This document shows positions 15,570 through 57,845 of a DNA stretch of 64,000 nucleotides, piece by piece. The notes under the pieces are model-generated. The model saw only the letters and a list, made by a program, of their open reading frames with translations, was not told the DNA's origin and did not search any database. A program made the position numbers and the translations under genes. Numbering within the stretch: position 1 is the first letter of the stretch; each line of letters opens with the position of its first letter. Origin of the DNA: Candidatus Bathyarchaeia archaeon (GTDB taxonomy: Archaea; Thermoproteota; Bathyarchaeia; Bathyarchaeales; Bathycorpusculaceae); assembly GCA_049521795.1 (NCBI GenBank), contig JBEKOM010000002.1, forward strand, positions 192,001 to 256,000. The letters run 5' to 3'.

Positions 15570-15747
15570 GCGCGCCCAAATGATATCGTGGCAAGGAAGG
15601 TGGCTCAAAAAGGATGCGTCAACGGGACGTTTTGTGTCTAGGAGCAGTTCTTTTTGCGGGTCTCCAGTCTGGAAGCTCAGATTTCATGAGGTTTTTAAGT
15701 AAAAGCTTCGGACGAAGAAAGAAGAGGCAGTAGTCTGCGCAACCACG

Positions 15748-16479
15748 TCAGCGTTGGTCCTCGGGTTCGATCACGGGTTGAAGCTCTGCCTTTCTCCTTA
15801 AAGATTTAGGTGGCCTCTTGTGCGTGCTCAGGTAGACGACGGATGATGCTACTGCAAGAACGAGGATTTCACTGGCGATCACTGTTTCTTGGAAGCCTGC
15901 GTCTGTCCATGCTGGCGGCGGTCCTTGACCGGTTATCAAGCCGTTGACGTCGACGTGGGCAGCATCATTGCCTTGTCCATTCTTGACCAGACTTACACTC
16001 TCACCTTGAAATGGCGCGTGTATTTCTAGAGTTGTGGTTCCCACGTGAATAATCGTGAAGTTCATCCAAAATATGACTCCAGTTCCGCTTATCTGCGTGC
16101 CGTGAGATTGGAAGAGGCAACCGAAAAGTGTCGTTCCGTTTTGATTGTCCATGTAGTTCATTACGAAGTAGGTCGGAGATACATCTTTCAGGAAGGGACC
16201 CTCAATAACACCGTAAGATGGCCCCCCGCCGGTTGGCGCAGTACCATTGGGAACGCCGGTTGTGACTTGGGCTATGTAAGGGTCCCATGACACGGCGATT
16301 ACCCATTCTCCAACAGATGGCACATTTTTCAGGGTTGCAGTAAGCAAGACCGTCTGGCCAACTTGGTCTACGTTGTAAACTGCATCTATGCTCAGCACGG
16401 TGGTCGGTGGGATCGTGTAGACGTATGCAAGAACAACCACGACGACCACCAACAGCAATGCTAATGCCTTCCTTTTCAA
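15748..16479 (-). CDS. Cohesin-like domain membrane protein
   Basis: Signal/TM, VGQTV...SWDP...EGPFLK...SGTGVIFWMNF cohesin-like pattern, C-terminal TM plus basic tail. Confidence 0.75.
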   Translation of the reverse strand: MKRKALALLLVVVVVVLAYVYTIPPTTVLSIDAVYNVDQVGQTVLLTATLKNVPSVGEWVIAVSWDPYIAQVTTGVPNGTAPTGGGPSYGVIEGPFLKDVSPTYFVMNYMDNQNGTTLFGCLFQSHGTQISGTGVIFWMNFTIIHVGTTTLEIHAPFQGESVSLVKNGQGNDAAHVDVNGLITGQGPPPAWTDAGFQETVIASEILVLAVASSVVYLSTHKRPPKSLRRKAELQPVIEPEDQR

Positions 16480-16629
16480 ACCCTTTCACCTTGGCCTCCT
16501 ATAGTGCGCTTTTGTATATTTTAACTTGTTGTTTCAGAAGACAGTTAGGGCATAGTGCTTCCTAGAGCTTGCGTTTTTAAGACAGAGAAAAAAGGATGGG
16601 GCTTCCTTAAGCCTGCACGATTGTCCAAT

Positions 16630-17673
16630 CTATGTTTGTCTTCTCTTGCGGAGTCCAACAGCGATCAGCGTTGCGATCATTAGCAGCGGAATAGCCATTA
16701 GTACAGGAAACTCTGGTATCGTTCCCACTATCTGCACCGTTTTAGTGCTTAACCCTGTTGTGAAGTAGAGATAAGTGTTCGTACTGTCCTCTGCTACTAT
16801 TGGTGTTACCGGTGTTCCGTTAACCGTTACGTTCCAATGATCTGCTGCTTCGTTTGCGAGCGCCACGAGGTTCTTTGGAATTGTCACGTTGACGTAAGCA
16901 GTTGTTCCGCCGTTTGATGCAGCTGTAAGGTTGAAGTTAAGCGTCCAGTTTGCGATGTACGTCATGGAGCTTGGTACCACTGTAGCGTTGCTCACTGTTA
17001 TGACGTTGTAGTTTGTGCCGCTCTTGACGACGACGCTGGTCACCGATTCCGGGGGTCCGTAGATCACGATTTGACCGTCAGCCGTTGCCATCGTTATTGG
17101 TAGTCCATTAACGTCGCCTACTACTACGCCTGATATCGCTAGGCCTGTTTGATACTTCATGTTCGTCGGTGGAATGGCGGTTACGTTAAAAGTGAGCGTC
17201 GCTAGTGCCGTCTCTCCGTTACCGTAGTTGGCCGTTGTAACGTTGATCGGAGCGTAACCTCCGGATATTGCTGAACCGGTATCTTGGAACGTCTGTGCGT
17301 AGGTTGCGGTGCCGGCAGTGTTGTTGATTTTCAAATTGATGGACCAGATGTTGCTCCATTGATCCGACGGCGTCACGTTGTGGAATAGGATCTCAGTCAT
17401 CTTTGTGCACGTTAGAAAAGTTGTGTTCCAAGTAAGCGTGAACTGCGGTCCCATGAAGGCTGTGATGTTAGCAATGCTGACGCTCACGTTGAACAGTGTT
17501 CCGACCGTCGCGCCGGTTAGAATGGTCTGCGGTGGGTCAACAAGAACCGTTGGTGAGCTGCTGCTAGCTGAGCATTTTGGGAAAGTGGAAGCGGAGTAAA
17601 GTATTGCTGAGATTATTAGCATGCTCATGAATACCCAGTGAAAGCCCTTCGACTTCAAATTCTTAGGAGTCAT
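16630..17673 (-). CDS. Cohesin-domain surface protein with PEF-type C-terminal sorting signal
   Basis: Signal peptide, VLVDPP...FNVSVSIANIT...QFTLTWN...LATLTF, ends IPEFP+TM+RKRR; ATG 17673 after AGGTG. Confidence 0.82.
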   Translation of the reverse strand: MTPKNLKSKGFHWVFMSMLIISAILYSASTFPKCSASSSSPTVLVDPPQTILTGATVGTLFNVSVSIANITAFMGPQFTLTWNTTFLTCTKMTEILFHNVTPSDQWSNIWSINLKINNTAGTATYAQTFQDTGSAISGGYAPINVTTANYGNGETALATLTFNVTAIPPTNMKYQTGLAISGVVVGDVNGLPITMATADGQIVIYGPPESVTSVVVKSGTNYNVITVSNATVVPSSMTYIANWTLNFNLTAASNGGTTAYVNVTIPKNLVALANEAADHWNVTVNGTPVTPIVAEDSTNTYLYFTTGLSTKTVQIVGTIPEFPVLMAIPLLMIATLIAVGLRKRRQT

Positions 17674-20227: not shown

Positions 20228-20824
20228 CAAAAGGTGAATTAGGCGAAACAGACTTCTGTTAGTTTCTGTAGCGAAGTTTCAAAGTCGTTTGGGCAACGGC
20301 GTTAGCTGGTAAATTCAATCCCTGCACTTCATGTTGGGAAAGGCAGTCTGCTGTCCAGCCAGAACGTCATTGGGCACTTTTTCCGAAGTTCTTTCGAATC
20401 TTATTGCGTCAGCGGGTTTGTTATTAGTTTCTGTTGTCGCTTGTGAAAGCGTTAGCGCGCGCCTAAAGTCCAAGCAACGCACGACTTGAATAGAATTGAA
20501 AAACAATGCGGAAGAGTCCCCACATCCTCAGGACACACCGCTTTTCACAGCCTAGGGTCCAGTGCTGCATGACTCAAGAGAACCCTCAGCTACTGTCTCT
20601 CATGCATGCGCGTTCCGAAATTGGTTTTCGAAGTGTCTTATGCTTCCAGATTTTGTTAGTTTGCGCATGGTGAGGGCGTCTTGAGCGGTGAGTAGTGCGC
20701 GCAGCAGTCCCTCAATAGCCGATGATCAGCATATTGTTCCTCACGACATATTACACAATTGAAGCACGCCTTTTCTACCAAAATGACTTAGGACACGATG
20801 ACAGCATTGGCAAGCTATGCAAGA

Positions 20825-22285: not shown

Positions 22286-22996
22286 ATGGTTTACTCGGAA
22301 AGAAACCAAACTGAAAGACACCTATGGTCTCCATAGGCCGCTCTTAACTAGTGGGATGAAATCCCAGAGACTGAAAAGTCAAAAATTTTATGGCGGACCC
22401 TCTTCGAATATGCTTTGGAATGTGAAGAAGTTTCTCCGTGGACGATTGGACTAGACCACGCGAGCGCACTCGGAATCGTTATGGTTTGAGGCGACTCAGC
22501 CGAAAAAGAACTGGCCTCCGGATTGCTGCGGGGGATACTAGCCGCCAACGGGCACAGAGTTTGTGCGCGCGCTGATTTATCCTGTGTTGAAGCTTTCTTT
22601 TGGGACTTCGTTCGAACGCAGGGATGGAACTGAGTAAGGCTGACGGGCTGATCTCTGGGTCGTAAACAGGTCTGTTGCACTGGGCCTGACAACAAACGGT
22701 AAGCCATTCGGTTTCTTTTTAGGCTCCGCTCAGTCCTTCAGCCATCGGAATTATGTTTCGAATCAAAATTAGTCTTCCACTAATGTCCGCAACGTGATTA
22801 AGCGAGACCTGCTTGTGTTGGGCTTGAACAACTGCGTTAAGGGTTGTTGCAGATTTACGTCTAGTTGGTTTTGAAAGAGTTGCGGAATACGCTTGCACCG
22901 CCATAATCTTAAGGTTTATGCTTCGTGCCGTTGGTTCATTGAAACAAAGAAAAAGTGGGGGGGAGCGCGCGCGTTCGTCCACTTGGAAATCTGTTC

Positions 22997-24997
22997 TTAC
23001 GCTGGGTTTATGTAGATGGGCGTGGGGTCGTATGGCAACCAGCCCAATTGGTATGTCGGGTTTGTATTGAAGTATCCGCTTATCACTTCTCCGCCAAAGT
23101 ATGGATAGTTGCTTAGCACTGCGCAGTCTATTTCGCTGTTTCCTGCGACTGCAAATTTGGGTATCTGGAAGGTTAGTGATACGGTGAAGTTCTTGTACTG
23201 GCACCAGACGGTTCCACCGAACGGTTCCATCGTAGAGTTTGCGCTGATCGGGGTTGTGAACTGTAACTGCGCGTCGACCGTGCCGTATGGGACGCGAACT
23301 TCGTCGAAGGCGGTGATTACTACTGTTACGTTGCTCAAGTCCATTGTTTTGCCCGTGAGCTCGTCCAAGTACACCGCGTCGGTTTGCTGTAGGTGTGTGC
23401 CGTACGTGACGTTGACGGTTACGTATCCGGCGTGATTGTAGTTCGTGAAGTCTGTTGTCTGTTTGAATATGCGAGCTAGGTAGTCGTAGTGGAACTGCAG
23501 GGTGTCGTTCACGACGACGCAGGCGATGTCGACTGTGCCTATGATGGTCCACACTCCGAACCACTGTTGTGGGTCGTCGCATGGCCATGGCAGTGTGAAG
23601 ACTGTGTATGCTGTCCCATTTACGTTTGACGTGGCGTAGATTATTGCCCATGTCTGGTTGTTCGGTGCTATTATCTGGAAGGCTACGTCTTTCTGTTGTT
23701 CAGGGTAGCCGTTGTACGTTACGTTTGCGTAGAGGCTAACAGGCTTCTGCGGCCAGAACATGTCGCTCGGCTGGTATAGTCCCTGTCCACCGTATGGTGC
23801 GGGCCAGCCTGTGAAGATGTCGATGACGCGGCCATTGGTGATCGCTAAACTACTTTTCATGATGTACGTGCCTGAAACTGGAGGCAGAATCTGTGGCATG
23901 ACGGCTGCGGTGGTGTTGGCTACGATCGTGTCAAAAAGTGTGAGAGGACATGTTAAGTCGGGCGCTGGGACTGTGTTTGGGGGCAGGGTCGCGTTGAACT
24001 CGATTATCGCTAGTACTCCTGTGCCGCTTGGGAACGGCTCGTGCCACGTGCCGTTGGCGTCTGGCTCAACAACGTCTCCAATTGTTACGTAGTCTTGGTT
24101 GATTGTGGTGTTGAAGCCGAAGACGTGGTTGAGGAACGTTGTGCCCTGGTTTGGCGCGGCTCCGAATGGTGGCAACCATGGTCCTTCAAAAGTGTTCAAC
24201 ACTTGTAGCAGCGTGCTGTTGTAGCCCAGGCTGAACTGGAACCCGACTGCTTTGAAGGAAGCGTCTAGGTTGTTCACGCTCACGCTTACGTTGAAGATTT
24301 CACCTACGCTGTGTGCAGTGTAACTGCTCGCTGAGAAGTAGGGTGGTGTTATGGCGAAGGTGTTCTCGTACTTCCCGTCCACGTTCGTGTGTGCGATCGG
24401 GAGGCCGTTGAGGTCACCTAGTATGTCGTTGCTTATGTGAAGGTTGCTGCTGAGGCTGGGCACCGTGGAGTTTGGTGCCTGAAGCACGATGAAGGTGAAT
24501 GCGGCAACTCCGTGCTTTCCTTCTGGCCATGAGTAGCTGGGTATGCCGACTGCGCTGCCGGTGGTCGTTATGTTTGCTGGGTCGTATCCATCTGCTTGTG
24601 CTAGGCCGCCGTCTACCCACGTGACGCCGTAGGTTGCGGTTCCTGCAGTGTTGCTGAAGGTTTTCTTGATGACGTTAATGTTGCTCGGATTGTCATCGGG
24701 CGCCGTTATGAGCGTGTCGTGGAAGAAGACCTCGGTCATGCTGGTGCAATTCAAAAGGTTGTGGTCCCAAGTAAGCGTGAACTGTATGCCTGCGAGCATC
24801 GTTATGTTTGCAACTGAAACGTTTAATTGGAACGATGTACCAACCGGCGCGGTAGGAAGGTTGGTGTTTTGAGGGTCAACGAACAGGAGTGCTGGTGGCT
24901 GTGCTTTTGCTACGTTTACCGTGAAGACTGCTGCGAAGCCGAGAAGTGTTGTTACAATCATCAGTGTGGAGATAACTTTCGCTAAAGTATTCTTCAT
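22997..24997 (-). CDS. Secreted scaffoldin-like protein: two cohesin-like domains plus Ig-like domains, no TM anchor
   Basis: LFVDP...FQLNVSVANI...QFTLTWD and IFNVSVSVNN...QFSLGYN...EGPWL...SGTGVLAIIEF; tandem GGAG leader. Confidence 0.82.
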   Translation of the reverse strand: MKNTLAKVISTLMIVTTLLGFAAVFTVNVAKAQPPALLFVDPQNTNLPTAPVGTSFQLNVSVANITMLAGIQFTLTWDHNLLNCTSMTEVFFHDTLITAPDDNPSNINVIKKTFSNTAGTATYGVTWVDGGLAQADGYDPANITTTGSAVGIPSYSWPEGKHGVAAFTFIVLQAPNSTVPSLSSNLHISNDILGDLNGLPIAHTNVDGKYENTFAITPPYFSASSYTAHSVGEIFNVSVSVNNLDASFKAVGFQFSLGYNSTLLQVLNTFEGPWLPPFGAAPNQGTTFLNHVFGFNTTINQDYVTIGDVVEPDANGTWHEPFPSGTGVLAIIEFNATLPPNTVPAPDLTCPLTLFDTIVANTTAAVMPQILPPVSGTYIMKSSLAITNGRVIDIFTGWPAPYGGQGLYQPSDMFWPQKPVSLYANVTYNGYPEQQKDVAFQIIAPNNQTWAIIYATSNVNGTAYTVFTLPWPCDDPQQWFGVWTIIGTVDIACVVVNDTLQFHYDYLARIFKQTTDFTNYNHAGYVTVNVTYGTHLQQTDAVYLDELTGKTMDLSNVTVVITAFDEVRVPYGTVDAQLQFTTPISANSTMEPFGGTVWCQYKNFTVSLTFQIPKFAVAGNSEIDCAVLSNYPYFGGEVISGYFNTNPTYQLGWLPYDPTPIYINPA

Positions 24998-33311: not shown

Positions 33312-34676
33312 CTATTTCCTCCTCAACGTTGGGTCGAGTATGTCTCTCAATGCGTCTCCGAGCAGGTTCCATCCCATGACGAATAGCGATATGAAGGCGC
33401 CGGGTATTATGAAAGTGTACCAGTAGAGAAATGGGTTTGACGGTGGGCCGTATATGTAGTTTTGAGACACGGCAATAATCTGTCCCCAATCCGCGTACCC
33501 TTCAGGAGCGCCTAAGCCGAGGAAACTTAGGGCTGCAGCCGCTAAGACTATTGTTCCTATATCCAGTGAAAAAACCACCAGTACTGGGTAGATCGAATTT
33601 GGCAGGATGTGTCTGCCAATGATTCTGGCGTCTGAGCAGCCTACGGATTTTGCTGCTTCAACGTAGTCCTCGTTCTTGATCCTCAGTACTTCTCCTCGTA
33701 TCAGTCTTGCATAACCCGGCCAGCCTACTATGACCATCGCGATCATCACTGCATCCAGACGCGCGAAGCCTATGGGCACAAGAACAACGACCAATGTCAT
33801 GCACAATATCAGGTACGGAAAAGCAAAAATGATGTCCGTGAACCTCATCAAAACCTCGTCTATCCACCCTCCATAGTAGGAAGCGATGATTCCGATAAGC
33901 AGACCTATAATCAGGGAAGAGCCGGCCACGTAGACTCCTATACGGAGCGCCGAGCGCGCGCCCCAGATAACCCCGTAATAAATGTCGTACTGGCTGTCCA
34001 TGGTGCCGAAAGGATGCGCCGCACTTGGAGGCTGTGGCTTTCCGACTCCCATTATCGCCAGAAGATTGCGGTCAATCGGAATCATGTTTGGGTCGCCTCC
34101 CTGAGTCACATCTCCGGGGTGCGCTAGGTAAGGAGCAAGGATTGCCATCAAAACGAAGAATATGATGATCGAAAGTCCGATGATTGAAAGGGAACTTTTT
34201 CTCATGAGCTTCAGGCTGAACCGCAACTCTTTGATCCTAGGACCTATCTCCGTCCTGAACTTCTGAAAAACGGCGCGCACCGTTCCGCCGCCGAATAGGG
34301 GCATCACTGAAGGTCTCGTCAAATAGTAGAGCACTGCAAAATCTAGGACGACACTTAATGCAAATGGTGTCCAAGAGCCTCCGTAAACGGTCAGCAGCCC
34401 AAGTTTCGCGGCCACGTCGATGCCCGAGAAGGCTAAGGCTGAAACCCATCCGATAGCTTCTCCTCCGCGAAGGTTGTAAAAAACATACAATCCAAGCAGG
34501 CCGAAGGCCACTAGGACAAGGCCAGTGTAAAGGCCATTAATCGATGGAATAAATGTTTCCAGCGGATTTCCAACTGTGAACAGGAGTACACCAAAGATCA
34601 GTTCTGTTAGAGCTATTGCAGCTGAAAGCAGTATGAGCAGCCTTAATCCTAACGGTCTCTGTTCTGGCATTCTCAT
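33312..34676 (-). CDS. oppC: Oligopeptide ABC permease OppC/DppC with extra N-terminal 4-TM module
   Basis: HPFGT, WGARSAL, WPGYARLIRGEVL, YVEAAKSVG, NLLGDALRDILDP. Confidence 0.93.
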   Translation of the reverse strand: MRMPEQRPLGLRLLILLSAAIALTELIFGVLLFTVGNPLETFIPSINGLYTGLVLVAFGLLGLYVFYNLRGGEAIGWVSALAFSGIDVAAKLGLLTVYGGSWTPFALSVVLDFAVLYYLTRPSVMPLFGGGTVRAVFQKFRTEIGPRIKELRFSLKLMRKSSLSIIGLSIIIFFVLMAILAPYLAHPGDVTQGGDPNMIPIDRNLLAIMGVGKPQPPSAAHPFGTMDSQYDIYYGVIWGARSALRIGVYVAGSSLIIGLLIGIIASYYGGWIDEVLMRFTDIIFAFPYLILCMTLVVVLVPIGFARLDAVMIAMVIVGWPGYARLIRGEVLRIKNEDYVEAAKSVGCSDARIIGRHILPNSIYPVLVVFSLDIGTIVLAAAALSFLGLGAPEGYADWGQIIAVSQNYIYGPPSNPFLYWYTFIIPGAFISLFVMGWNLLGDALRDILDPTLRRK

Positions 34677-40510: not shown

Positions 40511-40906
40511 GCCTCGATAAATCATAGCGTGCCCCCGCTTCACTCTGAGTTGCCTAGAGGCGAAAGGCATCGTCTTGGTTACCCTCACTACACTGCCTCC
40601 GCCAAGTTCTCAGCTATGATCATTGTTTTTCAAGAGGCTCCGGTAATGTGGACGAGAAGTATAAGACTTCTCGAGAATCTCATCGATTGTTACACGTCAA
40701 GCGCCTACGCACCGGCAAGAACAGATTTATCGGACGAATTCTACGAAAGAGGTCTGGTTGAAAAAAGTCGCTGGCCGACTGAGGGAGCGTAAGACTGTTA
40801 AGGATTTAACATCCCTGTTTTGGATAGAGGTTTGTGTTTGAGCGCGCGCGCTGAGCAAGTGCATGTGAAGAATCGTTAGCTCTTCTAGAACGCGCGCGGA
40901 TGCGAG

Positions 40907-42319
40907 TCATGGGAAGTGTTGTAGGAAGTGGTTTCCCAGTATTATCGCGTCTAAGATGTTTACGACGTTGTCGCCGTTGATGTCTGCGTTCGGGTTCCAG
41001 TTTGAACTGCTCGGGTTGGAGAGAAAGGCGTTGCCAAGTTGTATGGCATCCAAAATGTTGACTATGCCGTCGCCGTTGACGTCGCCGGGGATTGTGACTG
41101 ATACGTACGTGCTGGAATTTTTGTCGGCTGTGTTTATGTCGTACGGCAATGGAGTGACGTGGGCTAGTAACGTGTAGTTGCCGTAGCTCAGGGTTGAGGT
41201 GTTCCATGGGAAGGTCAGGGTTTCGCTGCCTCCGCTGATCAAGGCTGTTGTTTGTGTGTCGACGAGGTTTGTGCCGCTTACGTTGCTCACGCTGTAGTAT
41301 AGCGTTACGTTGAACGTTTCTGTGTCTTGGCCATTGTTTTTGAGGGACACGGAGACGTTTATTCCACCCAGCGAGTATTCTATCGGTACTGAGGTTCTGT
41401 AGGGGCTAACACCGGTTGCGGCTATGTCTCTTGTGCCAACGTAGACGCTGAGGCTGATGTTCTTGTCGGATAGGTCCGTTTCGCCCGGAACCAGTGTTGC
41501 TGTGGCGTTCAGTGTATACTCTCCTATGGGCATGGATGTGGTGTCCCACGCATAATATAGGGTTTGACTTCCTCCTGCTGCCAGGTTTAAGACTGTTTGT
41601 GTTCCGATGGGGTTGCTATCGTCGAGTAGGGTCACGTCGAAGGTTTCTGAGACTCCGCCTCTGTTCTCAGCGGTCACGTTGATGTAAGCCATCGAGCCTT
41701 GGGGAATGTTTATCGGAGTTGCCAAGTCGCTTACGGTCACGTGAACGAGTCCTGCGTAGGCCCAGCCGTCGACCGATGTGAAGGAGATCTCGTTCGGCGG
41801 GTGAGCTGAATCTAGGAGCTGGATACCATCCAGGTGCAGGGTTGAGCCTCCGCTGCCTACGACCACGAAGTCGATGGATGCTACGCTTCCGCTTCCGCTT
41901 ACTCCTGTCACGTTTTGTCCAATAATGAAACGAGCATCAGCCAAGAGTATTACGCCGCACGTATCGTTGTAGTTGTTTGTGAAGTTGGCCACGACGAAGA
42001 ATGTGCTGACCCCTTCCTCTTGGAGGAAGGGCCCTTCAGTCGCGTTAGCCTCTAGCGTTATTCCGTCGGATCCTAAATGCGTGCCCAAGTTTAGAACTGC
42101 CTTTTGAAAGAATAGGCTGAATTGCCAACCCCTCAGGTCGGTCACGTTTGAAACCGTTACGTTCACCGTGAAGGCGTCGCCGATGTGTAGGCCAGCGACG
42201 GCGCCAGGCTCAAAGCCAACCATCGTCGTCGGTGACTGAAGCCCTGTTCCTTGGCGGAGAGGAAGCAAAAATGATAAGAATATTGTAACGAGTACTACAA
42301 GAACGACCTTATTCCACAT
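40907..42319 (-). CDS. Cohesin + 2 CARDB + dockerin adaptor protein
   Basis: FTVNVTVSNVTDLRGWQF...EGPFL...SGSGSVASIDF; two CARDB; GDVNGDGIVNILDAI...ADINGDNVVNILDAI; ATG 42319 after GGAG. Confidence 0.88.
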   Translation of the reverse strand: MWNKVVLVVLVTIFLSFLLPLRQGTGLQSPTTMVGFEPGAVAGLHIGDAFTVNVTVSNVTDLRGWQFSLFFQKAVLNLGTHLGSDGITLEANATEGPFLQEEGVSTFFVVANFTNNYNDTCGVILLADARFIIGQNVTGVSGSGSVASIDFVVVGSGGSTLHLDGIQLLDSAHPPNEISFTSVDGWAYAGLVHVTVSDLATPINIPQGSMAYINVTAENRGGVSETFDVTLLDDSNPIGTQTVLNLAAGGSQTLYYAWDTTSMPIGEYTLNATATLVPGETDLSDKNISLSVYVGTRDIAATGVSPYRTSVPIEYSLGGINVSVSLKNNGQDTETFNVTLYYSVSNVSGTNLVDTQTTALISGGSETLTFPWNTSTLSYGNYTLLAHVTPLPYDINTADKNSSTYVSVTIPGDVNGDGIVNILDAIQLGNAFLSNPSSSNWNPNADINGDNVVNILDAIILGNHFLQHFP

Positions 42320-42376
42320 ACGCTCCCGTTCTCTCCTCAATGCTAAATGTACTCTCTGCACATTATTTAAACGCTG

Positions 42377-44549: not shown

Positions 44550-44620
44550 ATAGTCCTTTCTCCTTCTCCTTTTGCTTATTCAGCAAGTTAGTTAACCACT
44601 TTCTAACTATTTAAGCTTAA

Positions 44621-44635
44621 TGGAAATAAGTTCTA
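44621..44635 (-). promoter_or_regulatory. TAGAR-N5-YTCCR operator next to TATA
   Basis: TAGAActtatTTCCAttaagcTTAAATA upstream of 44549. Confidence 0.75.
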
Positions 44636-44746
44636 TATTGGTTAACTAAGCTTAGAACAGTGCGCCACTCACTTGCTTCTATGAAAAACCAGGGTTTAAC
44701 GTAAGTACATGTTGAGTGTAGAGGGTTGTTCCCAGAGAGCGCGCGC

Positions 44747-44815
44747 TTCGGAACTGCTTTGTTTATACAGTTCTATGTAGCCGCAGCCAACGCAATAGAA
44801 GACTTTAATGTAGTC
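44747..44815 (-). pseudogene. Zinc-ribbon gene fragment (C-terminal half) between two (GC)n tracts
   Basis: Reads DYIKVFYCVGCGYIELYKQSSSE (CxxCGYxELY knuckle); no start codon and no first CxxC. Confidence 0.6.
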
Positions 44816-44969
44816 GCGCGCGCAACTAGCAAAACCTTGAAGCTTCTCGTCTTGTTTTCATGTAGCTGATGATTGGATTGGCAAAGGTGCGCCCAACCCA
44901 TAAATACTAATTGATTTAGGGACAAGCCAGCGCGCGCCATATGCGACGTATAAGCGTGAACGGATGGGG

Positions 44970-45625: not shown

Positions 45626-45740
45626 TTACCAGCGTTTCCTCAACAAACGGCGTGACCCGGCTGCAGCTGCTGCAAGGGCTATTACTAGCAAGGCCAGTGC
45701 AACCCATGGAGTGATGACCTGCACGGTGGTTATCGGAGCG
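45626..45740 (-). pseudogene. Orphan C-terminal anchor of a 46599-type surface protein
   Basis: APITTVQVITPWVALALLVIALAAAAAGSRRLLRKRW matches APINTLMLLAPWIALGLIAAASAVAMYRRLLKKHW; starts at (GC)5; own T-rich terminator. Confidence 0.8.
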
Positions 45741-45748
45741 CGCGCGCC

Positions 45749-46246
45749 TGTCTGGAACACCCTAGGGATGTTATCGGTAACGAAAATGTGCGGAGGGTTT
45801 TCGAAAAGGCGGCAGCAGAACCATTCCAAGACGAGGTGGATGAGAAGTTGGCTGTATGCCTATCCAGAGCTCTAACTCACCTTGGAGATTCTGCCCAGCA
45901 TAGTATAGAACGGAAATGGATGTCAGGAAAGCTTCTCCCGATCCTCTTGAATAATATGAAGAACAGAGACGAGAAAGCTAACGTGTGGTCCATGAAAGAA
46001 GCCGTGAAGACAGCAGGTCTGAGCGAGGAATTAAGATTTCAGGTCAGAAATAAGCTGCTTGAGTTTTGGTTTTCAAAAAAAGTCAAAGCGGACGATAAAG
46101 TTGGTACCGAGGTTTGCAAGCAATTGTCGCGTCTCACCTCAGAAGGCTTGTTTGAGACGGTTAGGGCAAGAATGAAGAGCAAAGATAAAGGGGTCGAAGC
46201 GAAAGCTGAACTTCTTCTGAGGGAACTAGGGAAATGTCTGCTCTAA
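45749..46246 (+). pseudogene. Probably 5'-truncated helical protein gene (ORF track 45788-46246)
   Basis: Frame is open from the (GC)5 tract without SD or promoter; followed by GCGCGC at 46268. Confidence 0.5.
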
Positions 46247-48370: not shown

Positions 48371-48569
48371 TAGCCGCTCGGTATCTACGTGAGCAAGGCT
48401 TATCAAATGCAAAAAAAAGCGCGCGCGAGACAACGCAAAAAGCCCTTGTTGCCCATGAGCGTGCCGCTGAATCATGAAGACTAGAACCAGAAGAAAGGAT
48501 AGGCCTAAATCAGTGTACGCATCTTTCTTCCAATAGAAGTGAATAGCACGGGAAACGAAGGCTTCTTCA

Positions 48570-49517
48570 GTGAAAAGCGGAAAGACACATAGGACGGAGA
48601 AATCCAGAAAGCGCCTGCTTAGGAAGAGAGTTTCCTACGTCTTCGCCGCCATGGTCGCACTCATACTTGTCGGCGTGCTTGCATACACCTTTCTGAGCCC
48701 CAGAAGCCCAACCATCAATGACAGCACTCCGAAGATCGCCATAGTCGACCAGCTTAGCGCCCAGTGGCCTGACCCAGAGTTCAACCAGACAGTCCAGGGC
48801 ATCTTGAACCAAACAGGCCTCAAAGTCGACTACTACCCAAGCCAAGACGTCACCGTTGATTTCTACCGAAACCTACCATCGCAAAATTACAAACTCATAA
48901 TCTTCAGGGTTCACTCAACAGCTGAAACGGGCGCTAAAGACATGCCGCCATGGGTAGTTTTCTTCACATCAGAAAACTACAGCGGCACAGCCCACGTCTC
49001 GGAGCAATCGGACATGCGAGTCGTGTACGTCAAATTCCCCGATGTTGCGCAGTTGTACTTCGGCATAACCCCAACGTTCGTGGAGAACTCAACGGAAGGA
49101 AAATTCAACGACACAACGATAATAGCCATGGGCTGCGACGGCTTGAATAAGACCAGCATGGCTGAGGCTTTCATTGAAAAGGGAGCAAAAGCCTACATAA
49201 GCTGGAACGGGTTCGTATCAGCAGACCACACGGACGAGGCGACAGAGTGCCTGCTCCGCCATCTCGTCACGGAAAACCAAACCGTTGAAGAGGCCGTGAA
49301 GGAAACCATGAACGAGGTGGGCCCCGACCCGACAGACAAAAGCGTACTGATGTTCTACCCAGACAACGCTGGGCCGAGTTTTCTCCTCCTCAGCGCAGCC
49401 ACGGCCGCTCCAACAGTCATGGCCACTCCTGCAGTCAGCGCGCCCGGTCTCGTCAACGCAACTGTCGCCACCCCGACAGTTAGGACAGCAAGGAAGAACA
49501 CCAACCAAAAAGACTGA
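48570..49517 (+). CDS. Membrane-anchored putative clan CD (CHAT/caspase-like) peptidase; paralog of 14090
   Basis: KIAIVDQL, KLIIFRVHS, LYFGITPTFV, IIAMGCDG, AEAFIEKGAKAYISWNG. Confidence 0.62.
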   Translation: MKSGKTHRTEKSRKRLLRKRVSYVFAAMVALILVGVLAYTFLSPRSPTINDSTPKIAIVDQLSAQWPDPEFNQTVQGILNQTGLKVDYYPSQDVTVDFYRNLPSQNYKLIIFRVHSTAETGAKDMPPWVVFFTSENYSGTAHVSEQSDMRVVYVKFPDVAQLYFGITPTFVENSTEGKFNDTTIIAMGCDGLNKTSMAEAFIEKGAKAYISWNGFVSADHTDEATECLLRHLVTENQTVEEAVKETMNEVGPDPTDKSVLMFYPDNAGPSFLLLSAATAAPTVMATPAVSAPGLVNATVATPTVRTARKNTNQKD

Positions 49518-49539
49518 AACTCGCGCGCGCTAGTTGAAA

Positions 49540-52278: not shown

Positions 52279-52321
52279 TCCTCATGGTCTGTTACAAGGA
52301 GAAAGGAGAATACTGTCAATA

Positions 52322-52507
52322 TTGATAATCGATGTTTTGTGTTTGTTAATGTTCTCTGCCCTTGCGTCTCAAGTAAAGGCGAAACAGACTACACTCTTTC
52401 AGGACCATCTTGAAAGCCTCGCGGTGAGCACTTTGAGCGCGCCGGCAACGGTCTTCGTGGATCCTGCGCGCGCTAGTTCATATTCGTTGTGTAGATGTCT
52501 TCTATAG
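52322..52507 (+). pseudogene. Chimeric remnant of secreted-protein genes
   Basis: Tandem GGAG leader at about 52297-52310, signal-peptide-like LCLLMFSALASQVKA, then PATVFVDP (cohesin N-terminus-like) between two (GC)n tracts. Confidence 0.55.
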
Positions 52508-54238: not shown

Positions 54239-56086
54239 TTAACTTTTCTCGTCCTTTTCCTTCTTTTCAAAGCTTCCAATAACGTCCTGCAAAGTGTCTC
54301 GCGGCTGAATCTTGATACCATATTTCTTCTCGAATTCTCTGATTTTCAGGTCACGCCTCTCAACATCAGTCTCGAAAAGTGCTTGCGCAACCACAAGAGG
54401 GTTGAACGCCTGGAGAAGTCGCCTCTGCTCAACAATCTTTCGACGGTATTTGATGGTAAACACTCCTAGAACAGCCTCAACTAACACCATCCCGGCTATC
54501 CCCCAGAACCACCACTGAGACCATACGGACATTCCTGGAGACACAACAGACGCTACTGTTACCTCATGTTCCCCGTGGAGACTTGTGAAGTAGACCCACG
54601 TGTGCGTTCCGTTTGTGCTAATCACACTGTATGAAACCGAAGCATGGTCCACCGTGACTGCGAACGGAGGCGCGATCAGTACACTAGGGATTAGGATGCG
54701 GGAGAAACCCTTGTTCCCGGTCGCATTAACGTTGAAGCTTAACGTGCCAGTTTTGTTGTCTGGACTACGATTGTACTGCAATCCTGAAATCGTAGAATTG
54801 CTGATAACAGCAACAATGCAAGATTGGTTTTCGATGTCGATGCTAAACTGCAAATACTGGCCCATCAGAGGATAGCTATCCTGGCTGTACACTCCCAGCC
54901 ACCCTCTATCATCGACGATGTATGGCTTGTCTCCGATCCCGCTCGTATGCGTGTCAGCACCACCGTAGTCTCCCCAGAAGTTGCCTTGGGCGCCATCATC
55001 CCAGAAATTACCGAAAGAATCGTTGCTCGGTTGTTCGACGTTCCTAATCAAGTTGTCAATGAAGTTGTTGTCAAAAAACCTGTTATTGCTGGAATTCCAG
55101 AGGCGAACTCCAAACTGATCGTTTGCCGAGATGTTGTTGCCTGAAATTCCGTTCCCGCCGGAATTGATGAACCATATTCCAAAAGTGTTATTGGAGACGT
55201 CGTCACCATTGAAGGCGTTGTCCGCAGAATCAAAGAGAAGTATTCCATACTCGTTGTTAAAAGATGCCGTGCTATCATCGAGGGTGTTGCCGCCAGAACC
55301 GTAAAAGTATATTCCGTACCCGTTCCTTGAAAAGTCGTTGCTTTGAAGAGTGTTGTTGAAAGAATACTGGAGCCCAATTCCGCGGCCTTGGTTTGAGACG
55401 ACAAGGTTGCCCGAAAGGGTGTTGTTGCTCGAACCGTATGAATATATCCCGTTCCAGCCGCTCGATGAAACATTGTTATCTGCAAGAACGTTATTTCTAG
55501 AAACGTCAAGATGAATTCCGTTCATGTTACCTGAGGCAACGTTATCCGAAACACTGATGTTGGCAGAACCGTAGAGGTGTACCCCATATTCGTTGCCTAA
55601 AACATCGTTGTCTTCAACAATGCTGTCGTTAGACCCATACAAGTATATACCATTATAGTTGTCTTTCACGATGTTGCCGCTTATGTTGTTATCACTTGAT
55701 TGGTACACTTGTATGCCACTGTAACCAAACATGCTGTTTCGTACAGTCAAACCTGTGACACTGACGTTGTCAGCCGTTATTCGAATAACGCTGCCCAATG
55801 CACGACCGTCAATAATAGTGCTGAGCACATTATCCCCTATAAGGGACACCGACTTGTTCACTACAACGTTTTCATAGTACGTTCCCGAATTCACTCGAAT
55901 CGTGTGTCCACTCAAAGTTGCATCAGCATCTATGGCCTCCTGAATCGTCGCATACCCCAGCCCTGTATCAATGTTAAGAACTGGCAACGTGGTTTCTGCC
56001 AGCACATTGAAAGACATTGCAGCGGTCAAGAGCGAGGCCAATAGTAAAACAAGAATAGCGGTGAGAAGAGCTCTGCCCAATTTCAT
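54239..56086 (-). CDS. NosD/CASH right-handed beta-helix surface protein with C-terminal TM
   Basis: YATIQEAID...GTYYENVVVNKSVSLIG, repeated GIxLxxSxNN, GNFWGDY, DSYPLM; ATG 56086. Confidence 0.9.
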   Translation of the reverse strand: MKLGRALLTAILVLLLASLLTAAMSFNVLAETTLPVLNIDTGLGYATIQEAIDADATLSGHTIRVNSGTYYENVVVNKSVSLIGDNVLSTIIDGRALGSVIRITADNVSVTGLTVRNSMFGYSGIQVYQSSDNNISGNIVKDNYNGIYLYGSNDSIVEDNDVLGNEYGVHLYGSANISVSDNVASGNMNGIHLDVSRNNVLADNNVSSSGWNGIYSYGSSNNTLSGNLVVSNQGRGIGLQYSFNNTLQSNDFSRNGYGIYFYGSGGNTLDDSTASFNNEYGILLFDSADNAFNGDDVSNNTFGIWFINSGGNGISGNNISANDQFGVRLWNSSNNRFFDNNFIDNLIRNVEQPSNDSFGNFWDDGAQGNFWGDYGGADTHTSGIGDKPYIVDDRGWLGVYSQDSYPLMGQYLQFSIDIENQSCIVAVISNSTISGLQYNRSPDNKTGTLSFNVNATGNKGFSRILIPSVLIAPPFAVTVDHASVSYSVISTNGTHTWVYFTSLHGEHEVTVASVVSPGMSVWSQWWFWGIAGMVLVEAVLGVFTIKYRRKIVEQRRLLQAFNPLVVAQALFETDVERRDLKIREFEKKYGIKIQPRDTLQDVIGSFEKKEKDEKS

Positions 56087-56222
56087 CCCAGTACAATATA
56101 TTGTTAAGATGAAGCGACTTCTTTTATGCGTATTGGTAGCGCGCGCTGGTAGCAAACTGAAACCTGGTATCTAAGACCAGAACAGGTAAATACGAGGGTC
56201 ACCATAATTAAATTGATCCGCT

Positions 56223-57299
56223 TTGAGAAACGGAAAGGCAAGTTTGCTTGCTCTAATAATTCTAGCGTTATTTGTGGGTATATATCCACTAGGTAAAGCG
56301 ACGCCCGGAACCGTAGTGGCCGTTGATCCAACGGCAAGCACAGTCAAATTGGGACAGACCTTTGGAATCAATATCAACATTACCGATGTTACAGGGCTTC
56401 TGGGGTTTGACTTCCAGCTGTCGTATGACGCTACTGTTTTGAAGCTCGTAGACATTCAGCAAGGGTCCTTCCTGAAGAGCGTCGGATCCACTCTCGTAAT
56501 CAATCTCACAACCAATGGGGTCATTTGGTTGGCTGTGGCTGTCTACAGCCCTCAACCGCTGTCATCGGCCAATGGAAGCGGCGTTCTCGCCACAGCAACC
56601 TTTAAAGCGGTAGCGGCAGGCGAATCCTTGCTAGACTTATATTCTAAAGACCCCTACACGCCAGACGAAGTTAAACTTGTAAGCGATCCTCCGCCAGACA
56701 GCGTGGCAGCGATTCCCAATGTGGCCGCCGACGGACACGTATTCGTTTCGTCTGATCCCGCAGACCCACCAGACCCACCGCCAAACCCTCCGCCGCCAAC
56801 AACCCCTGCGCTGACAGCGCACGCGCTTGCTCCCAAAACTGTTGTCGGACAAGGCTACAAGCTACCCATAAGTGTAACGACCGCGAATCAGGGAGACCTC
56901 ACCGAGACCTTCAGCGTCGCCAGTTACGCAAACACTGCTGAAATAGGAGAACAAACCCTAACCCTGTCAAATGGAAGCTCCACCACCGTCTCTTTTGTCT
57001 GGAACACTAATGGCTTTGCTTACGGCAACTACTCCGTAACTGCTCAGGCTTTCGTTCCAGGGCAAACGAGCACGGCTAGCGACACTGTCGTTGATGCCTT
57101 CGTGATCGTAACAATTCCAGGTGATCTTAGCGGTGACTTCAAGGTTAACATAAGCGATGCCATTCTGCTATCATCGGCCTTCAATTCTAAACCGGGCAGC
57201 TCACACTGGAACCCCAACGCAGACATAAACGGCGACGGCGTCGTAAACATCCTTGACTCCATAATACTGGCAAACCACTTCCTCGAACACTACCCTTAA
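56223..57299 (+). CDS. Cohesin + Pro linker + CARDB + dockerin adaptor protein
   Basis: VAVDP...FGININITDVTGLLGFDFQLSYD...NGSGVLATATF; DPPDPPPNPPPP; terminal dockerin. Confidence 0.88.
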   Translation: MRNGKASLLALIILALFVGIYPLGKATPGTVVAVDPTASTVKLGQTFGININITDVTGLLGFDFQLSYDATVLKLVDIQQGSFLKSVGSTLVINLTTNGVIWLAVAVYSPQPLSSANGSGVLATATFKAVAAGESLLDLYSKDPYTPDEVKLVSDPPPDSVAAIPNVAADGHVFVSSDPADPPDPPPNPPPPTTPALTAHALAPKTVVGQGYKLPISVTTANQGDLTETFSVASYANTAEIGEQTLTLSNGSSTTVSFVWNTNGFAYGNYSVTAQAFVPGQTSTASDTVVDAFVIVTIPGDLSGDFKVNISDAILLSSAFNSKPGSSHWNPNADINGDGVVNILDSIILANHFLEHYP

Positions 57300-57845
57300 C
57301 CCCGCGTTTCTCGGCGACACTCCGCGGTTTCTGACCAAAGCGACAATGCGTAAATAAGTAGGCTATTCGCGCGCGCTCGTAAGAGACGCTGTGAGAAGAT
57401 TCTTGGAGCGGTATGGTTATTACCCGGGAATCAAGCGGAGGTCGAACACAGTTGAAACTTGTGCACCAACACTAGGATTCGACAACGATCCGTAGCTACT
57501 AGTGCGCTAGCGTGTTTCTGAATTCTTTGGGGAAGTGGCTTGTGCGGCTCATTCTGCTCCCTAACCATATTTGGCTCCAAATATGCATGATACATTGAAA
57601 CCGAGGAGGGGTACCAGACGCCGCCCCACGTTCATGCGCATGTAAAGAAGACTCTGCTGCGTCGCGGACAAATACAACGTTGGGTCATATAGCATACCCG
57701 GGGGGAGGGTGTGAGTGTGAGCACGCAAACACCCAGTCCGAACCATGACAGTAACCATCGACCATCGGAAAACGCTATGCCTGCTCTTGAACGGAATTCA
57801 GGAACAAGCATGCGCGCTCCGAGAAGGAACTTCAAGGTACGCCTG

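Follow-up and report, generated by a model that had tools for sequence, protein, structure and literature searches.

What are the short runs of alternating G and C that recur in the non-coding DNA of a surface-protein island in a Bathyarchaeia genome? The window analysed here is a stretch of 64,000 nucleotides from an archaeal genome of 2.44 Mb (G000). Its initial annotation listed 14 such runs of 8-10 nt and suggested an undescribed end-joining or recombination process, such as GC-dinucleotide addition or a GCGCGC restriction system. None of these is needed. The (T)A-(GC)4-5-T(A) tracts are better read, with a probability of about 0.7, as excision footprints of one genus-specific cut-and-paste transposon superfamily, probably sealed by NHEJ. 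If this is true, they would offer a rare view, preserved in nature, of how transposons leave and ends are joined in an uncultured archaeon. The initial interpretation as a whole is partly supported.

Tracts and edges of the island

The 14 non-coding runs are all present, and no run of at least 8 nt lies outside 20455-57376 in the window. The solo tract ttaGCGCGCGCcta (20455..20462) stands where two divergent ORFs are 793 nt apart, and the one at 22565..22572 in a 711-nt gap between convergent ORFs; another (22965..22973) lies 23 nt past the stop of the ORF for a cohesin-domain protein (22997..24997, minus strand). The solo 10-nt tract tgaGCGCGCGCGCtga (40842..40851) is followed by the CGCGCGCG run (40891..40898), 8 nt past the stop of ORF 40907..42361(-). 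Three tracts share a 420-nt gap (44550-44969): the first two (44739..44746 and 44815..44823) are solo, and the third (44930-44937) terminates a solitary MITE-A TIR (44898..44937, minus strand; plus strand ...TTTAGGGACAAGCCA-GCGCGCGC). A second solo 10-nt tract (45738..45747) is located 40 nt upstream of ORF 45788..46246(+), and the solo tract 48419..48427 has divergent ORFs on either side. The remaining solo tracts include 49522..49530, with TAG on its right flank and 4 nt past the stop of ORF 48570..49517(+); cctGCGCGCGCtag (52466..52473), with neighbouring 6-nt runs at 52437 and 52601; and 57368..57376, 68 nt past the stop of ORF 56223..57299(+). The solo tract gtaGCGCGCGCtgg (56139..56146) is at the 5' edge of an ORF call (54239..56155, minus strand), 9 nt within this crude TTG-start prediction, and was counted as probably non-coding. 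The sole run of at least 8 nt within an intact ORF (33954..33961; ORF 33312..34676, minus strand) had also been noted initially, and the seven non-coding runs of 6-7 nt (15570, 20697, 46268, 52437, 52601, 53359 and 57812) agree in number with the initial annotation; six more runs of this length lie inside ORFs of the island.

At the left edge of the island in the comparison with G001 (14275..14276), this relative reads ...CGCTA-GCGCGCGCGC-TAAAC... and continues into unrelated DNA, while G000 and G002 are still collinear. The homology with G002 (window 14007-15570, 1564 nt, 78% identity) ends exactly at the GCGCGC run 15570..15575. A copy of MITE family B (57502..57817, minus strand) is located at the right edge, with 28 nt between it and the DNA ligase stop; the edge itself is where collinear G001 homology restarts (57852..57852). 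The left TIR of this copy, GCGCGCATGCTTGTTCCTGAATTC, is the 6-nt run 57812-57817; the right TIR is degenerate, and a repeat of about 100 nt is nested at about 57578-57679. A fragment of a third TIR-bearing repeat (20604..20691, plus strand), with the degenerate end ...GCATGCGCGTTCCGAAATT..., matches G001 and G000 C13:39945, and its homology stops 6 nt from the run 20697.

Such tracts might be artefacts of assembly, amplification or sequencing, and many short Logan contigs begin or end within about 16 nt of a tract. However, contigs from three other, independent peat runs cross the tracts 40842 and 40891, and one contig (run X2) crosses 56139, all with 0 differences. The feature is also seen in 11/11 genus genomes, including a single-contig one, and a few tracts are common to orthologous sites of different genomes. 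The probability of an artefact is negligible. One contig of run X2 departs from the window sequence at 44936, within the tract 44930-44937. The contig data contain no occupied/empty polymorphism at the window tracts, and no excision event was directly observed.

Genome-wide distribution of the tracts

In the whole genome, 389 alternating G/C runs of at least 8 nt were counted (323 non-coding, 58 coding and 8 straddling), and the tracts are a genome-wide rather than an island-specific feature. The proposed link to the surface-protein island holds only as a local excess: 13 non-coding tracts were counted in the island, where the genome non-coding rate predicts 5.0 (2.6-fold, Poisson P=0.002). 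The two arms of the window have zero tracts, as was first reported, but this is not significant (1.5 expected, P=0.22).

The histogram of run lengths from 4 to 13 nt (8840, 2083, 543, 198, 219, 107, 56, 3, 3 and 1) showed a bump at 8-10 nt and an abrupt stop at 11; such a bump is absent for every other dinucleotide in the genome-wide histograms. The tract consensus is (T)A-GCGCGCGC-T(A), and the GCGCGCGC runs have A at -1 in 124/191 and T at +1 in 138/191. Non-alternating registers (AGCGCGGCGCT, AGCGCCGCGCT and the like) have 0-2 copies, whereas the alternating forms have 92, 52 and 19. With a crude in-house ORF caller, which called 80% of the genome coding, the octamer palindrome GCGCGCGC was counted 350 times (overlapping) in non-coding DNA, where an order-1 Markov model predicts 6.8 (51-fold), and 59 times against 27.5 in coding DNA. 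This bears out the intergenic enrichment suspected at the outset. The tract density is greatest in convergent gaps (0.96 per kb), and tandem gaps showed some excess at 0-20 nt past stop codons (29/168 tracts). A fixed distance to starts or stops was not found.

Turnover of the tracts in relatives

Compared with relatives of 91-95% identity, the tracts are almost never conserved and cluster at the ends of alignment blocks. In 400 kb of G001, with 2000 resamplings of non-coding positions as the null, 8/67 tracts lie within aligned blocks (null 32.3), a 4-fold depletion from aligned non-coding DNA. Tracts are located within 3 nt of a block end in 11/67 cases (null mean 1.15, maximum 7) and within 12 nt in 17/67 (null 2.5, maximum 9), which confirms the early claim that homology stops at the tracts. 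On contig C2 of G000, only 2/30 lie within aligned blocks, though 52% of the non-coding DNA is aligned. Since so few are found in aligned blocks, the tracts are scars and not conserved functional sites. In our reading, only 4/17 of the G001 tracts with two anchors have a perfect orthologous tract in any relative.

Comparison with relatives gave 11 polarised or paired cases in which 85-3292 nt of their sequence correspond to a tract. The G000 tracts are C2:78177 (756-777 nt in G001, G002 and G010), C2:146668 (2138 nt in G002 and 2154 nt in G010), C2:102191 (229 nt), C6:47053 (85 nt), C6:80524 (3186 nt) and C8:77684 (2960 nt in G002); the G001 tracts are 339435, 370826, 404058, 681540 and 683628 (501-3292 nt). 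There are also small patches where a tract substitutes for 4-7 nt. The ancestral sequences at the 11 junctions and three patches have no tract. The tracts mark junctions of DNA loss or exchange, and the idea of a scar at DNA junctions is upheld.

A selected motif could also be over-represented in this way, for example a HIP1-like palindrome linked to a methyltransferase, an element at gene ends that binds a protein or resembles a terminator, or an uptake signal; the junction position would then be a by-product of the intergenic location. The 51-fold excess, the density in convergent gaps and the excess past stops are in line with selection. Moreover, HIP1 is the closest published octamer in the available parts of the sources (PMC5861425, PMC4390886), and G000 has a C5 cytosine methyltransferase. 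However, this enzyme has no homologue in G001, the most tract-rich genome, and no Rfam family was found in the window. The poor retention at orthologous sites, the depletion from aligned DNA and the variable distance to genes also argue against selection, whereas HIP1 is described as conserved in both coding and non-coding DNA (PMC5861425, in part). A selected motif is very unlikely.

Probable source elements of the tracts

The tract sequence is identical to the abutted TIR tips of two MITE families and a 1.1 kb IS, whose ends read TA/GCGCG...CGCGC/TA. In the alignment, the ends of MITE A (about 185 nt) are (T)AGCGCG(Y)TGGCTTGTCCC ... GGGACAAGGCA(R)CGCGCT(A), and the end of MITE B (about 210 nt) is GCGCGCATGCTTGTTCCTAAATTC.... 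The TIRs of the three elements start with 5'-GCGCG(C), then N3, then (G/C)YTTGTYCC, and the GCGCG tips are a conserved part of inverted repeats of 17-25 nt in all three types, including the autonomous IS. In G007, a 1113-bp element with matching TIRs contains a single ORF of 348 aa. Its matches to PF01609 (1.8e-11) and PF05598 (2.2e-7), both exceeding the Pfam cut-offs, identify the predicted protein as a DDE_Tnp_1/DUF772 transposase. Metagenomes contain more than 120 transposase protein clusters (at least 75% identity), many of them from contigs about 1.1 kb long.

The initial annotation had excluded a MITE or REP family. The flanks of the tracts do differ, as it stated; however, the tract itself is equal in sequence to the two outermost 4-5 nt of the TIRs of MITE A, MITE B and the IS, and these elements are flanked by TA as the tracts are. 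TA is immediately outside 23/61 element ends and 172/778 tract sides (background 5.0%), and the adjacent base is A in 45/61 and 462/778, respectively (background 26.8%). The copies L268 and L271 are clean TA/.../TA elements.

At three or four orthologous sites, a whole MITE or one of its ends in one genome is matched by a tract, or a remnant resembling one, in another. MITE A at G002 C1:159420 corresponds to AGCGCGGGCT in G000; one site has MITE B in G001 (430608), AGCGCACGC in G002 and MITE A in G000; MITE B at G001 597765 corresponds to AGCGCG in G010; and a MITE-B-type end closes the 2960-nt segment of G002 that corresponds to a tract in G000. Some empty sites of polymorphic MITEs have no GC run, and therefore the element carries in its own GCGC tips.

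Several observations count against footprints. Only 38% of the element ends have TA outside, and a polymorphic MITE A (G010 C99:6220) has a duplication of 8-9 bp at its flanks, not TA. The remnants in the three MITE-versus-remnant alleles (AGCGCGGGCT, AGCGCACGC and AGCGCG) are imperfect rather than perfect 8-mers. MITE A was detected in no genome other than G000, G001, G002 and G010, and in G000 and the single-contig G001 the transposase is represented only by fragments or relatives of 44-53% identity.

The tracts might alternatively be landing pads: the transposase would favour insertion in or beside GCGCGCGC, which resembles its abutted ends, and the tracts would mark repeated insertion or breakage. 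The site with three alleles (MITE A, MITE B and a 9-nt remnant), where a metagenome contig joins a different left flank, is consistent with this, as are the deletions adjoining pre-existing tracts (G001 683628 and 536494). Several MITE copies also have an extra partial tip in front (AGCGC-AGCGCGC..., GCGCGC-AGCGGGC...) or an 8-nt end run. However, the origin of the tracts is left unexplained, with ancestral junctions and patches free of them; polymorphic MITEs have empty sites with no GC run, and just 5/389 tracts touch a TIR core. Landing pads are an unlikely explanation of the tracts, though compatible with excision footprints and not exclusive of them.

The tracts and the TIR pattern co-occur across genomes. 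AGCGCGCGCT has 92 copies in G000 and 7-114 copies in 10/10 other genus genomes (reversed control 0-4), against 0-9 copies in 30 genomes outside the genus. The TIR pattern GCGCGNNNSYTTGTYCC was found in 9/10 genus genomes, with 20 matches in G000 (control 0-1), and outside the genus by one match in 1/30 genomes. Two results count against footprints: distant genus members have 39-82 tracts yet just 1-8 TIR-pattern matches, and two genomes from outside the genus, G024 and G019, contain 9 and 5 AGCGCGCGCT copies, respectively, with no TIR-pattern match and no Ku found.

Ku-LigD operon and proposed mechanism

The search for Ku/LigD that had been suggested was positive. G000 has an operon (C5:41155-44209) of a LigD primase-polymerase, Ku and a ligase-phosphoesterase, with domain matches to LigD_Prim-Pol (2.3e-85), Ku (1.9e-40) and ligase+PE. 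Ku is present in 8/11 genus genomes against 2/30 outside. It was not found in three genus genomes of 65-89% completeness, which counts against sealing by Ku.

A polymerase, such as the LigD primase-polymerase, could also produce the tracts as filler DNA during break repair, as initially suggested, by adding or slipping alternating GC, so that self-complementary tails anneal and are ligated; the transposon ends would then have GCGC only because they were joined by the same route. The nearly genus-specific operon with its AEP polymerase, the strict alternating register, the tract-free ancestral edges of the deletion junctions and the variable run length at MITE ends (5, 6 or 8 nt) agree with such synthesis. 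However, two Ku-positive genomes outside the genus, G016 and G040, are without the TIR pattern and have 1 and 0 AGCGCGCGCT copies, which counts against GC-adding repair. The conserved tips of three element types and the TA bias common to tract sides and element ends also argue against it, and the abrupt stop at 10 nt is twice a 5-nt alternating tip, unlike open-ended synthesis. No polymerase is known to synthesise GC in vivo that is both strictly alternating and of fixed length. Filler synthesis is quite unlikely.

In the excision model, the superfamily would comprise the IS of about 1.1 kb, with its 348-aa transposase, and the non-autonomous derivatives MITE A and MITE B. The departure of an element, probably by excision and not by host slippage, would leave the terminal 4-5 nt of both ends between the flanks as TA-GCGC/GCGC-TA. 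The break is probably sealed by the Ku-LigD NHEJ operon of the genus. In some repairs, between a few nt and about 3 kb of the flanks may be lost as well, often up to a short GC microhomology, which would explain why tracts are seen where DNA was deleted or replaced. Old footprints seem to be re-used for insertion or breakage. The palindrome, the 8-10 nt window and the A/T flanks would follow from abutted element tips; the genus restriction, non-coding bias and non-conservation would follow from the same origin. TAGCGCTA, the footprint if 4-nt GCGC 3' overhangs simply annealed, is not enriched, which counts against the model; A(GC)2T occurs 103 times in non-coding DNA, similar to its neighbours, and the dominant form is 4+4. 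Kept tips together with kb-scale flank loss also count against it and would require either resection on one side at a GC microhomology or more than one step.

Comparison with known systems

HIP1 (GCGATCGC) of cyanobacteria has been reported at deletion end-points. In the available parts of the sources, HIP1 is, like the tract, a lineage-restricted GC-rich octamer palindrome with at least an order of magnitude of over-representation; it is abundant in coding DNA, conserved by selection between genomes and linked to orphan methyltransferases (PMC5861425, PMC4390886). In contrast, the tract is non-coding and unconserved, without a shared C5 methyltransferase, and has an identifiable transposon source.

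The loss of ISApl1/Tn6330 and IS629 occurs at microhomologies of 2-4 bp, which may intrude into the IS ends, and larger deletions of neighbouring DNA accompany excision; a role in this IS-excision-enhancer (IEE) system is ascribed to an AEP-type polymerase active in MMEJ (bioRxiv 10.1101/2023.06.07.543989, in part). The IS removal with microhomology junctions and adjacent deletions is similar. However, those IS are described there as copy-out-paste-in elements with circle intermediates and mostly scarless excision, whereas the scar here is constant and palindromic. The AEP here is the LigD PolDom beside Ku, and a search of G000 for an IEE-like Prim-Pol (PF09250) gave no match.

Archaeal NHEJ polymerases fill gaps and partly annealed ends, according to the available part of PMC4797286. 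As in Methanocella paludicola, the four modules (Ku, LigD polymerase, phosphoesterase and ligase) are encoded together in G000; here, the comparison is of gene content, and co-occurrence points to a sealing role.

PIF/Harbinger elements, the eukaryotic relatives of IS5, are also TA-targeting cut-and-paste transposons. A close parallel in outcome is with Tc1/mariner and Sleeping Beauty, as far as described in the available part of PMC7827188: the element is flanked by a duplicated TA, the donor site keeps a few terminal nucleotides of both inverted repeats, and footprints come to outnumber elements over time. Excision sites of Sleeping Beauty and mariner are repaired by Ku-dependent NHEJ, which is probable here, and the footprint consists of the retained overhangs between the duplicated TA (PMC7827188). 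A limited literature search found no report of prokaryotic footprints on the scale of 389 per 2.4 Mb. In the present case an archaeon is the host, with a transposase of the DDE_Tnp_1/DUF772 rather than the Tc1/mariner type. Sleeping Beauty and mariner are described as retaining 3 nt, whereas 4-5 nt per end would be retained here at the putative cut positions; the GCGC tips make the scar a perfect GC palindrome.

Abundance and shape of the tracts

The genome from which the window comes (G000) is an archaeal assembly of 2.44 Mb in 69 contigs; the window, C2:192001-256000 of this assembly, contains genes for RNA polymerase subunits of the Rpb1/Rpb2 type and for an ATP-dependent DNA ligase. A run scan of the window detected 15 stretches of alternating G/C, each 8-10 nt long and all within 20455-57376; 14 of them are outside any ORF or lie at the margin of one, and one (33954) is inside an ORF. 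Every tract position listed in the initial annotation was recovered. From 40.5 to 57.8 kb of the window, a tract is present in almost every intergenic gap. The tracts had also been linked to the island of variable surface proteins. The local excess was confirmed (13 non-coding tracts vs 5.0 expected at the non-coding rate of the genome, P=0.002); however, the feature is genome-wide, and the lack of tracts in the window arms is not significant (1.5 expected).

The numbers of alternating G/C runs of 4 to 13 nt in G000 were 8840, 2083, 543, 198, 219, 107, 56, 3, 3 and 1, respectively. The histogram of the whole genome rises again at 8-10 nt and breaks off at 11, whereas the AT, AC, GT, AG and CT runs decay smoothly without such a rise; simple microsatellite slippage was ruled out on these grounds. 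Tracts (runs of at least 8 nt) number 389, including 323 non-coding, 58 coding and 8 straddling, as assigned by a crude ORF caller that makes 80% of the genome coding. The non-coding bias first noticed in the window is also seen genome-wide, and the core octamer GCGCGCGC was observed 350 times in non-coding DNA vs 6.8 expected under an order-1 Markov model. As an exact 8-mer it is the predominant form, with 191 cases vs 28 of CGCGCGCG; A stands before it in 124/191 and T after it in 138/191.

Some other features of the window are as follows. One 1272-aa ORF on the minus strand (395-4213) contains Rpb1 domains 1 to 5, so the large RNA polymerase subunit appears to be unsplit in G000. The island proteins at 22997-24997, 25353-28100 and 49594-52278 carry cohesin and dockerin, SBP_bac_5, PKD, PQQ-propeller and CARDB domains; by domain prediction, this archaeon has a cellulosome-like set of surface proteins. 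Many genes share a recurrent C-terminal segment of ~180 nt (~40905-41100, 51950-52280 and 57190-57300). At the Rfam gathering score the window has no matching family, and relaxing the search of 57250-57900 to E ≤ 1 gave no match either.

Elements with G/C-alternating termini

An insertion sequence (IS) of 1113 bp was found in a genus relative (G007), with one ORF of 348 aa; the element is bounded by GCGCGCTGGCTTGTCCC on one side and by the inverted counterpart on the other. The ORF matches PF01609 (DDE_Tnp_1; 44.6 bits, cut-off 23) and PF05598 (DUF772; 31.2 bits, cut-off 23.1). Having a DDE_Tnp_1 domain and terminal inverted repeats (TIRs) around a single transposase gene, and being multicopy, this element fits an insertion sequence of the DDE_Tnp_1 type in the IS4/IS5/IS1182 group. 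In NCBIfam no IS family reached its cut-off (best IS1182, 81.9 bits against 270, and IS5, 62.5 against 140), and the IS was therefore not filed in IS5 or IS1182. Clustering at ≥75% identity gives more than 120 groups of the transposase in metagenomes, many of them on contigs of ~1.1 kb. G000 contains transposase fragments only, which could be explained by short-read binning.

Two shorter families share the TIR core of the IS, and filled and empty alleles of such elements are found between genomes. Family A (~185 nt, 24 matches in G000) has inverted repeats that open with an alternating run, (T)AGCGCG(Y)TGGCTTGTCCC ... GGGACAAGGCA(R)CGCGCT(A). Family B (~210 nt, about 15-26 matches) begins with GCGCGCATGCTTGTTCCTAAATTC; one copy lies in the window beside the ligase gene (57502-57817). 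Both are miniature elements of the MITE type, being short, non-coding, multicopy and polymorphic, with the TIRs of an autonomous element. The initial annotation had set aside a MITE origin; this was not supported, because the tracts match the TIR tips of MITE A, MITE B and the IS. In the window, the tract 44930-44937 itself forms the end of a lone family-A repeat. MITE A as the only source was ruled out, since six genus genomes have tracts and lack MITE A.

The interior of MITE A (e.g. G000 C1:301525-301704) contains a 13-nt unit, GCATATACAYTTT, in 2-3 tandem copies, and the octamer GCATATAC ranks with those most in excess in non-coding DNA (28 vs 4.3 expected). Within the window copy of MITE B, a 46-nt segment in a nested repeat (57566-57613) has many copies at 89-94% identity in distant members of the genus, G008 alone having at least 17. 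The locus L271 (G008:C22:2974-6134) holds a 3.16 kb element between family-B-type repeats and TA; it is nested in a further outer inverted repeat of ~25 nt, and has short ORFs only (97-198 aa).

Anatomy of the tracts

Element copies are arranged as TA/GCGCGC...GCGCGC/TA, and clean TA...TA borders are present in the loci L268 and L271. TA stands just outside 23/61 element ends and 172/778 tract sides (background 5%), and one MITE copy is flanked by an 8-9 bp duplication instead of TA. The tract consensus, (T)A-GCGC/GCGC-T(A), was compared with the element ends, TA/GCGCG...CGCGC/TA: the tract length of 8-10 nt is twice the alternating tip of 4-5 nt. In-register joins of two tips, A(GC)4T, A(GC)3T and A(GC)5T, occur in 92, 52 and 19 copies; out-of-register joins occur in 0-2. 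The tract can thus be read, from its composition, as the last nucleotides of the left and the right element end, held between the target duplication, which is the structure of a footprint. Nearly all tracts are solitary, with only 5/389 in contact with a repeat core. No longer target duplications flanking the tracts were found at k=3-12 compared with shuffled partners, and no palindrome continues into the flanks past the A/T and TA bias.

Occupied and remnant alleles were also compared. MITE A in G002 (C1:159420) corresponds to AGCGCGGGCT in G000 with the same flanks, and MITE B in G001 (597765) corresponds to AGCGCG in G010. One orthologous site has three states: MITE A in G000, MITE B in G001, and AGCGCACGC in G002. 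These MITE-vs-remnant sites (n=3) all have imperfect remnants; one further site has a MITE-B-type end vs a perfect tract, and no pair of a full MITE vs a perfect 8-mer at one site was found among the genomes compared. Two metagenome contigs cover the three-state site, one with the G002 state and the other with a new left flank at the same join point; neither carries a perfect-tract allele. Opposite two polymorphic MITEs the empty sites are free of GC runs, which indicates that the GC tips move with the element.

Tracts and synteny junctions

The identity to G000 over rpoA/B is 95% for G001 and G002, and 92% for G010. For the comparison, 400 kb of G001 was used, of which ~61% aligns to G000, mostly at 85-93% identity and in synteny with contigs C2, C8 and C6. 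Only 8/67 tracts of G001 are inside aligned blocks, vs 32.3 under a null of random non-coding positions (48% of the non-coding DNA is aligned). A block end is at most 3 nt away for 11/67 (null mean 1.15, highest of 2000 resamplings 7), and at most 12 nt away for 17/67 (null 2.5, highest 9). On the G000 side, the aligned blocks of C2 hold 2/30 tracts. These alignments indicate that the tracts are young and placed at junctions.

The four-way views of 19 G000 tracts gave 6 clean, 3 ambiguous and 10 without two anchors, and none was conserved. The tract CGCGCGCGCGC at C2:78177 replaces 756-777 nt of G001, G002 and G010. Other G000 tracts stand opposite 2138 nt (G002) and 2154 nt (G010) at C2:146668, 229 nt at C2:102191, 85 nt at C6:47053, 3186 nt at C6:80524, and 2960 nt at C8:77684, where the G002 segment ends in a family-B tip. 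Two anchors were found for 17/67 tracts of G001: five are opposite 501-3292 nt, three are in place of 4-7 nt, for one, G000 is 157 nt longer beside a shared tract, and eight are of the substitution or conserved type. The claim that homology starts or stops at the tracts was thus right, because the tracts crowd the block ends and replace longer segments of the relatives. Short GC microhomology (GCGC, GCCCGC, CGC...GCGC) is often seen at the ancestral edges of these junctions. Tract-free deletions relative to G001/G002 also exist (G000 C2:74364, C2:85776 and C6:85971; 0.5-1.3 kb), each flanked by imperfect direct repeats of 14-18 nt.

Where G000 carries the island (14276-57851, 43.6 kb), G001 instead has 37.1 kb of different DNA. 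At the left edge of the island G001 reads CGCTA-GCGCGCGCGC-TAAAC, where G000 and G002 are still collinear; beyond this edge, the GCGCGC run at 15570 is the exact point at which the homology of G002 ends. The ligase-flank loci of 80 relatives contain few tracts. Three tracts were also crossed by assembled sequence from other runs: contigs (not raw reads) of independent peat sequencing runs bridge 40842/40891 (X2, X3 and X4) and 56139 (X2) with 0 differences. In the covered parts of the window, these contigs, in which starts, ends and rare alleles would not be visible, have no joints or indels at tracts. One X2 contig departs from the window at 44936, a tract end.

Outside the window, a gene-poor stretch of G000 (C2:5800-12000) packs 19 tracts into 6 kb, interspersed with pieces resembling tRNA T-arms (GGTTCGAGTCC-like) and flanked by two family-B-type ends (C2:3120 and C2:17259). 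This region gives the impression of a graveyard for integrated elements.

Phyletic range and end-joining genes

The motif AGCGCGCGCT is present in 92 copies in G000, compared with 1 for the reversed control, and in 7-114 copies in each of the other genus genomes (10/10); 30 genomes from other genera of the family and order have 0-9. By these counts the tract enrichment is genus-specific. The TIR pattern GCGCGNNNSYTTGTYCC has 20, 26 and 37 matches in G000, G001 and G002 (controls 0-1) and 0-8 in other genus genomes (9/10 positive); outside the genus there is a single match, in 1/30 genomes. Two members of other genera of the family, G024 and G019, have 9 and 5 copies of AGCGCGCGCT vs 1 and 0 in the controls, and neither the TIR-pattern search nor the Ku search gave a match in them; their weak excess may reflect a relative of this element family whose repeat core differs.

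The search for Ku/LigD suggested in the initial annotation was positive. One NHEJ operon is located outside the window at G000 C5:41155-44209, encoding a LigD primase-polymerase (288 aa; PF21686), Ku (281 aa; PF02735), and a ligase fused to a 3'-phosphoesterase (464 aa; PF13298+PF01068+PF04679). These make up a complete archaeo-prokaryotic NHEJ gene set. Ku is present in 8/11 genus genomes vs 2/30 outside the genus; the 3 genus genomes without a match are 65-89% complete. The two outside genomes with Ku have 0 TIR-pattern matches and 1 and 0 copies of AGCGCGCGCT, which indicates that NHEJ alone does not make tracts. Judged from co-occurrence only, Ku/LigD probably seals the excision breaks. 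No IEE-like Prim-Pol (PF09250) was found in G000.

Comparison with HIP1

HIP1 is a hyper-abundant palindrome in cyanobacteria which has been unexplained for decades. It is conserved across related genomes in coding and non-coding DNA, whereas 323/389 tracts are non-coding and only 8/67 (G001) and 2/30 (G000 C2) are in aligned blocks. HIP1 is also linked to orphan methyltransferases (PMC5861425, PMC4390886). For a palindrome of this type a cognate enzyme would be expected wherever the motif is abundant; the C5 (PF00145) search of the genus gave a different picture. The PF00145 gene of G000 was found in 1/10 genus genomes, with only a distant match in G002. A HIP1-like link to a C5 methyltransferase was ruled out, since this sole gene has no homologue in G001. 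It is a 667-aa ORF at C6:17891-19891 with the domain at residues 64-391 and a C-terminal half that has no domain assignment, and such an enzyme is rare in the family (3/40 other genera). A regulatory or terminator motif was also ruled out, because the tracts have neither positional constraint nor conservation.

Interpretation

The reading that fits the tracts best is that of footprints left by a DDE transposon/MITE superfamily specific to the genus; some excisions would also carry off flanking DNA. The footprint reading predicts a transposase that cuts 4-5 nt inside on the non-transferred strand and targets TA. If true, a hyper-abundant lineage-specific palindrome, a feature of the HIP1 type, would gain a concrete mechanistic source, and hosts with Ku/LigD would let prokaryotic cut-and-paste transposons leave eukaryote-like footprints. 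The footprints would be a countable and datable record of transposition and NHEJ for an uncultured lineage of archaea in which neither is open to bench measurement. The scars would also mark lost or swapped segments of the flexible genome, help in reading hypervariable surface-protein islands in metagenome-assembled genomes, and warn annotators that these GC palindromes are not regulatory sites.

A wider and rather doubtful proposal is that one DDE transposon family and the archaeal Ku-LigD jointly run the turnover of the flexible genome through NHEJ-sealed GCGCGCGC scars that are re-used. Every excision would be sealed by NHEJ into such a scar; the scars would be preferred landing pads and microhomology for later breaks and deletions, and the surface-protein island and like regions would become cassette-like arrays with scar boundaries. 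In that case, the ~390 scars in each genome would form the first large natural record of NHEJ in an archaeon, and also the first large record of eukaryote-style transposon footprints in a prokaryote. No published account of GCGCGCGC tracts in archaea, or of so many footprints in a prokaryote, was found in the literature searched.

For Sleeping Beauty and mariner, one report describes Ku-dependent NHEJ at excision breaks that leaves retained overhangs between duplicated TA (PMC7827188). For bacteria, another describes IS loss at microhomologies of 2-4 bp, and IEE-enhanced excision with adjacent deletions (bioRxiv 10.1101/2023.06.07.543989). The closest known counterparts of the tracts are these eukaryotic TA-transposon footprints and bacterial IS-loss scars; HIP1 is similar by appearance only.
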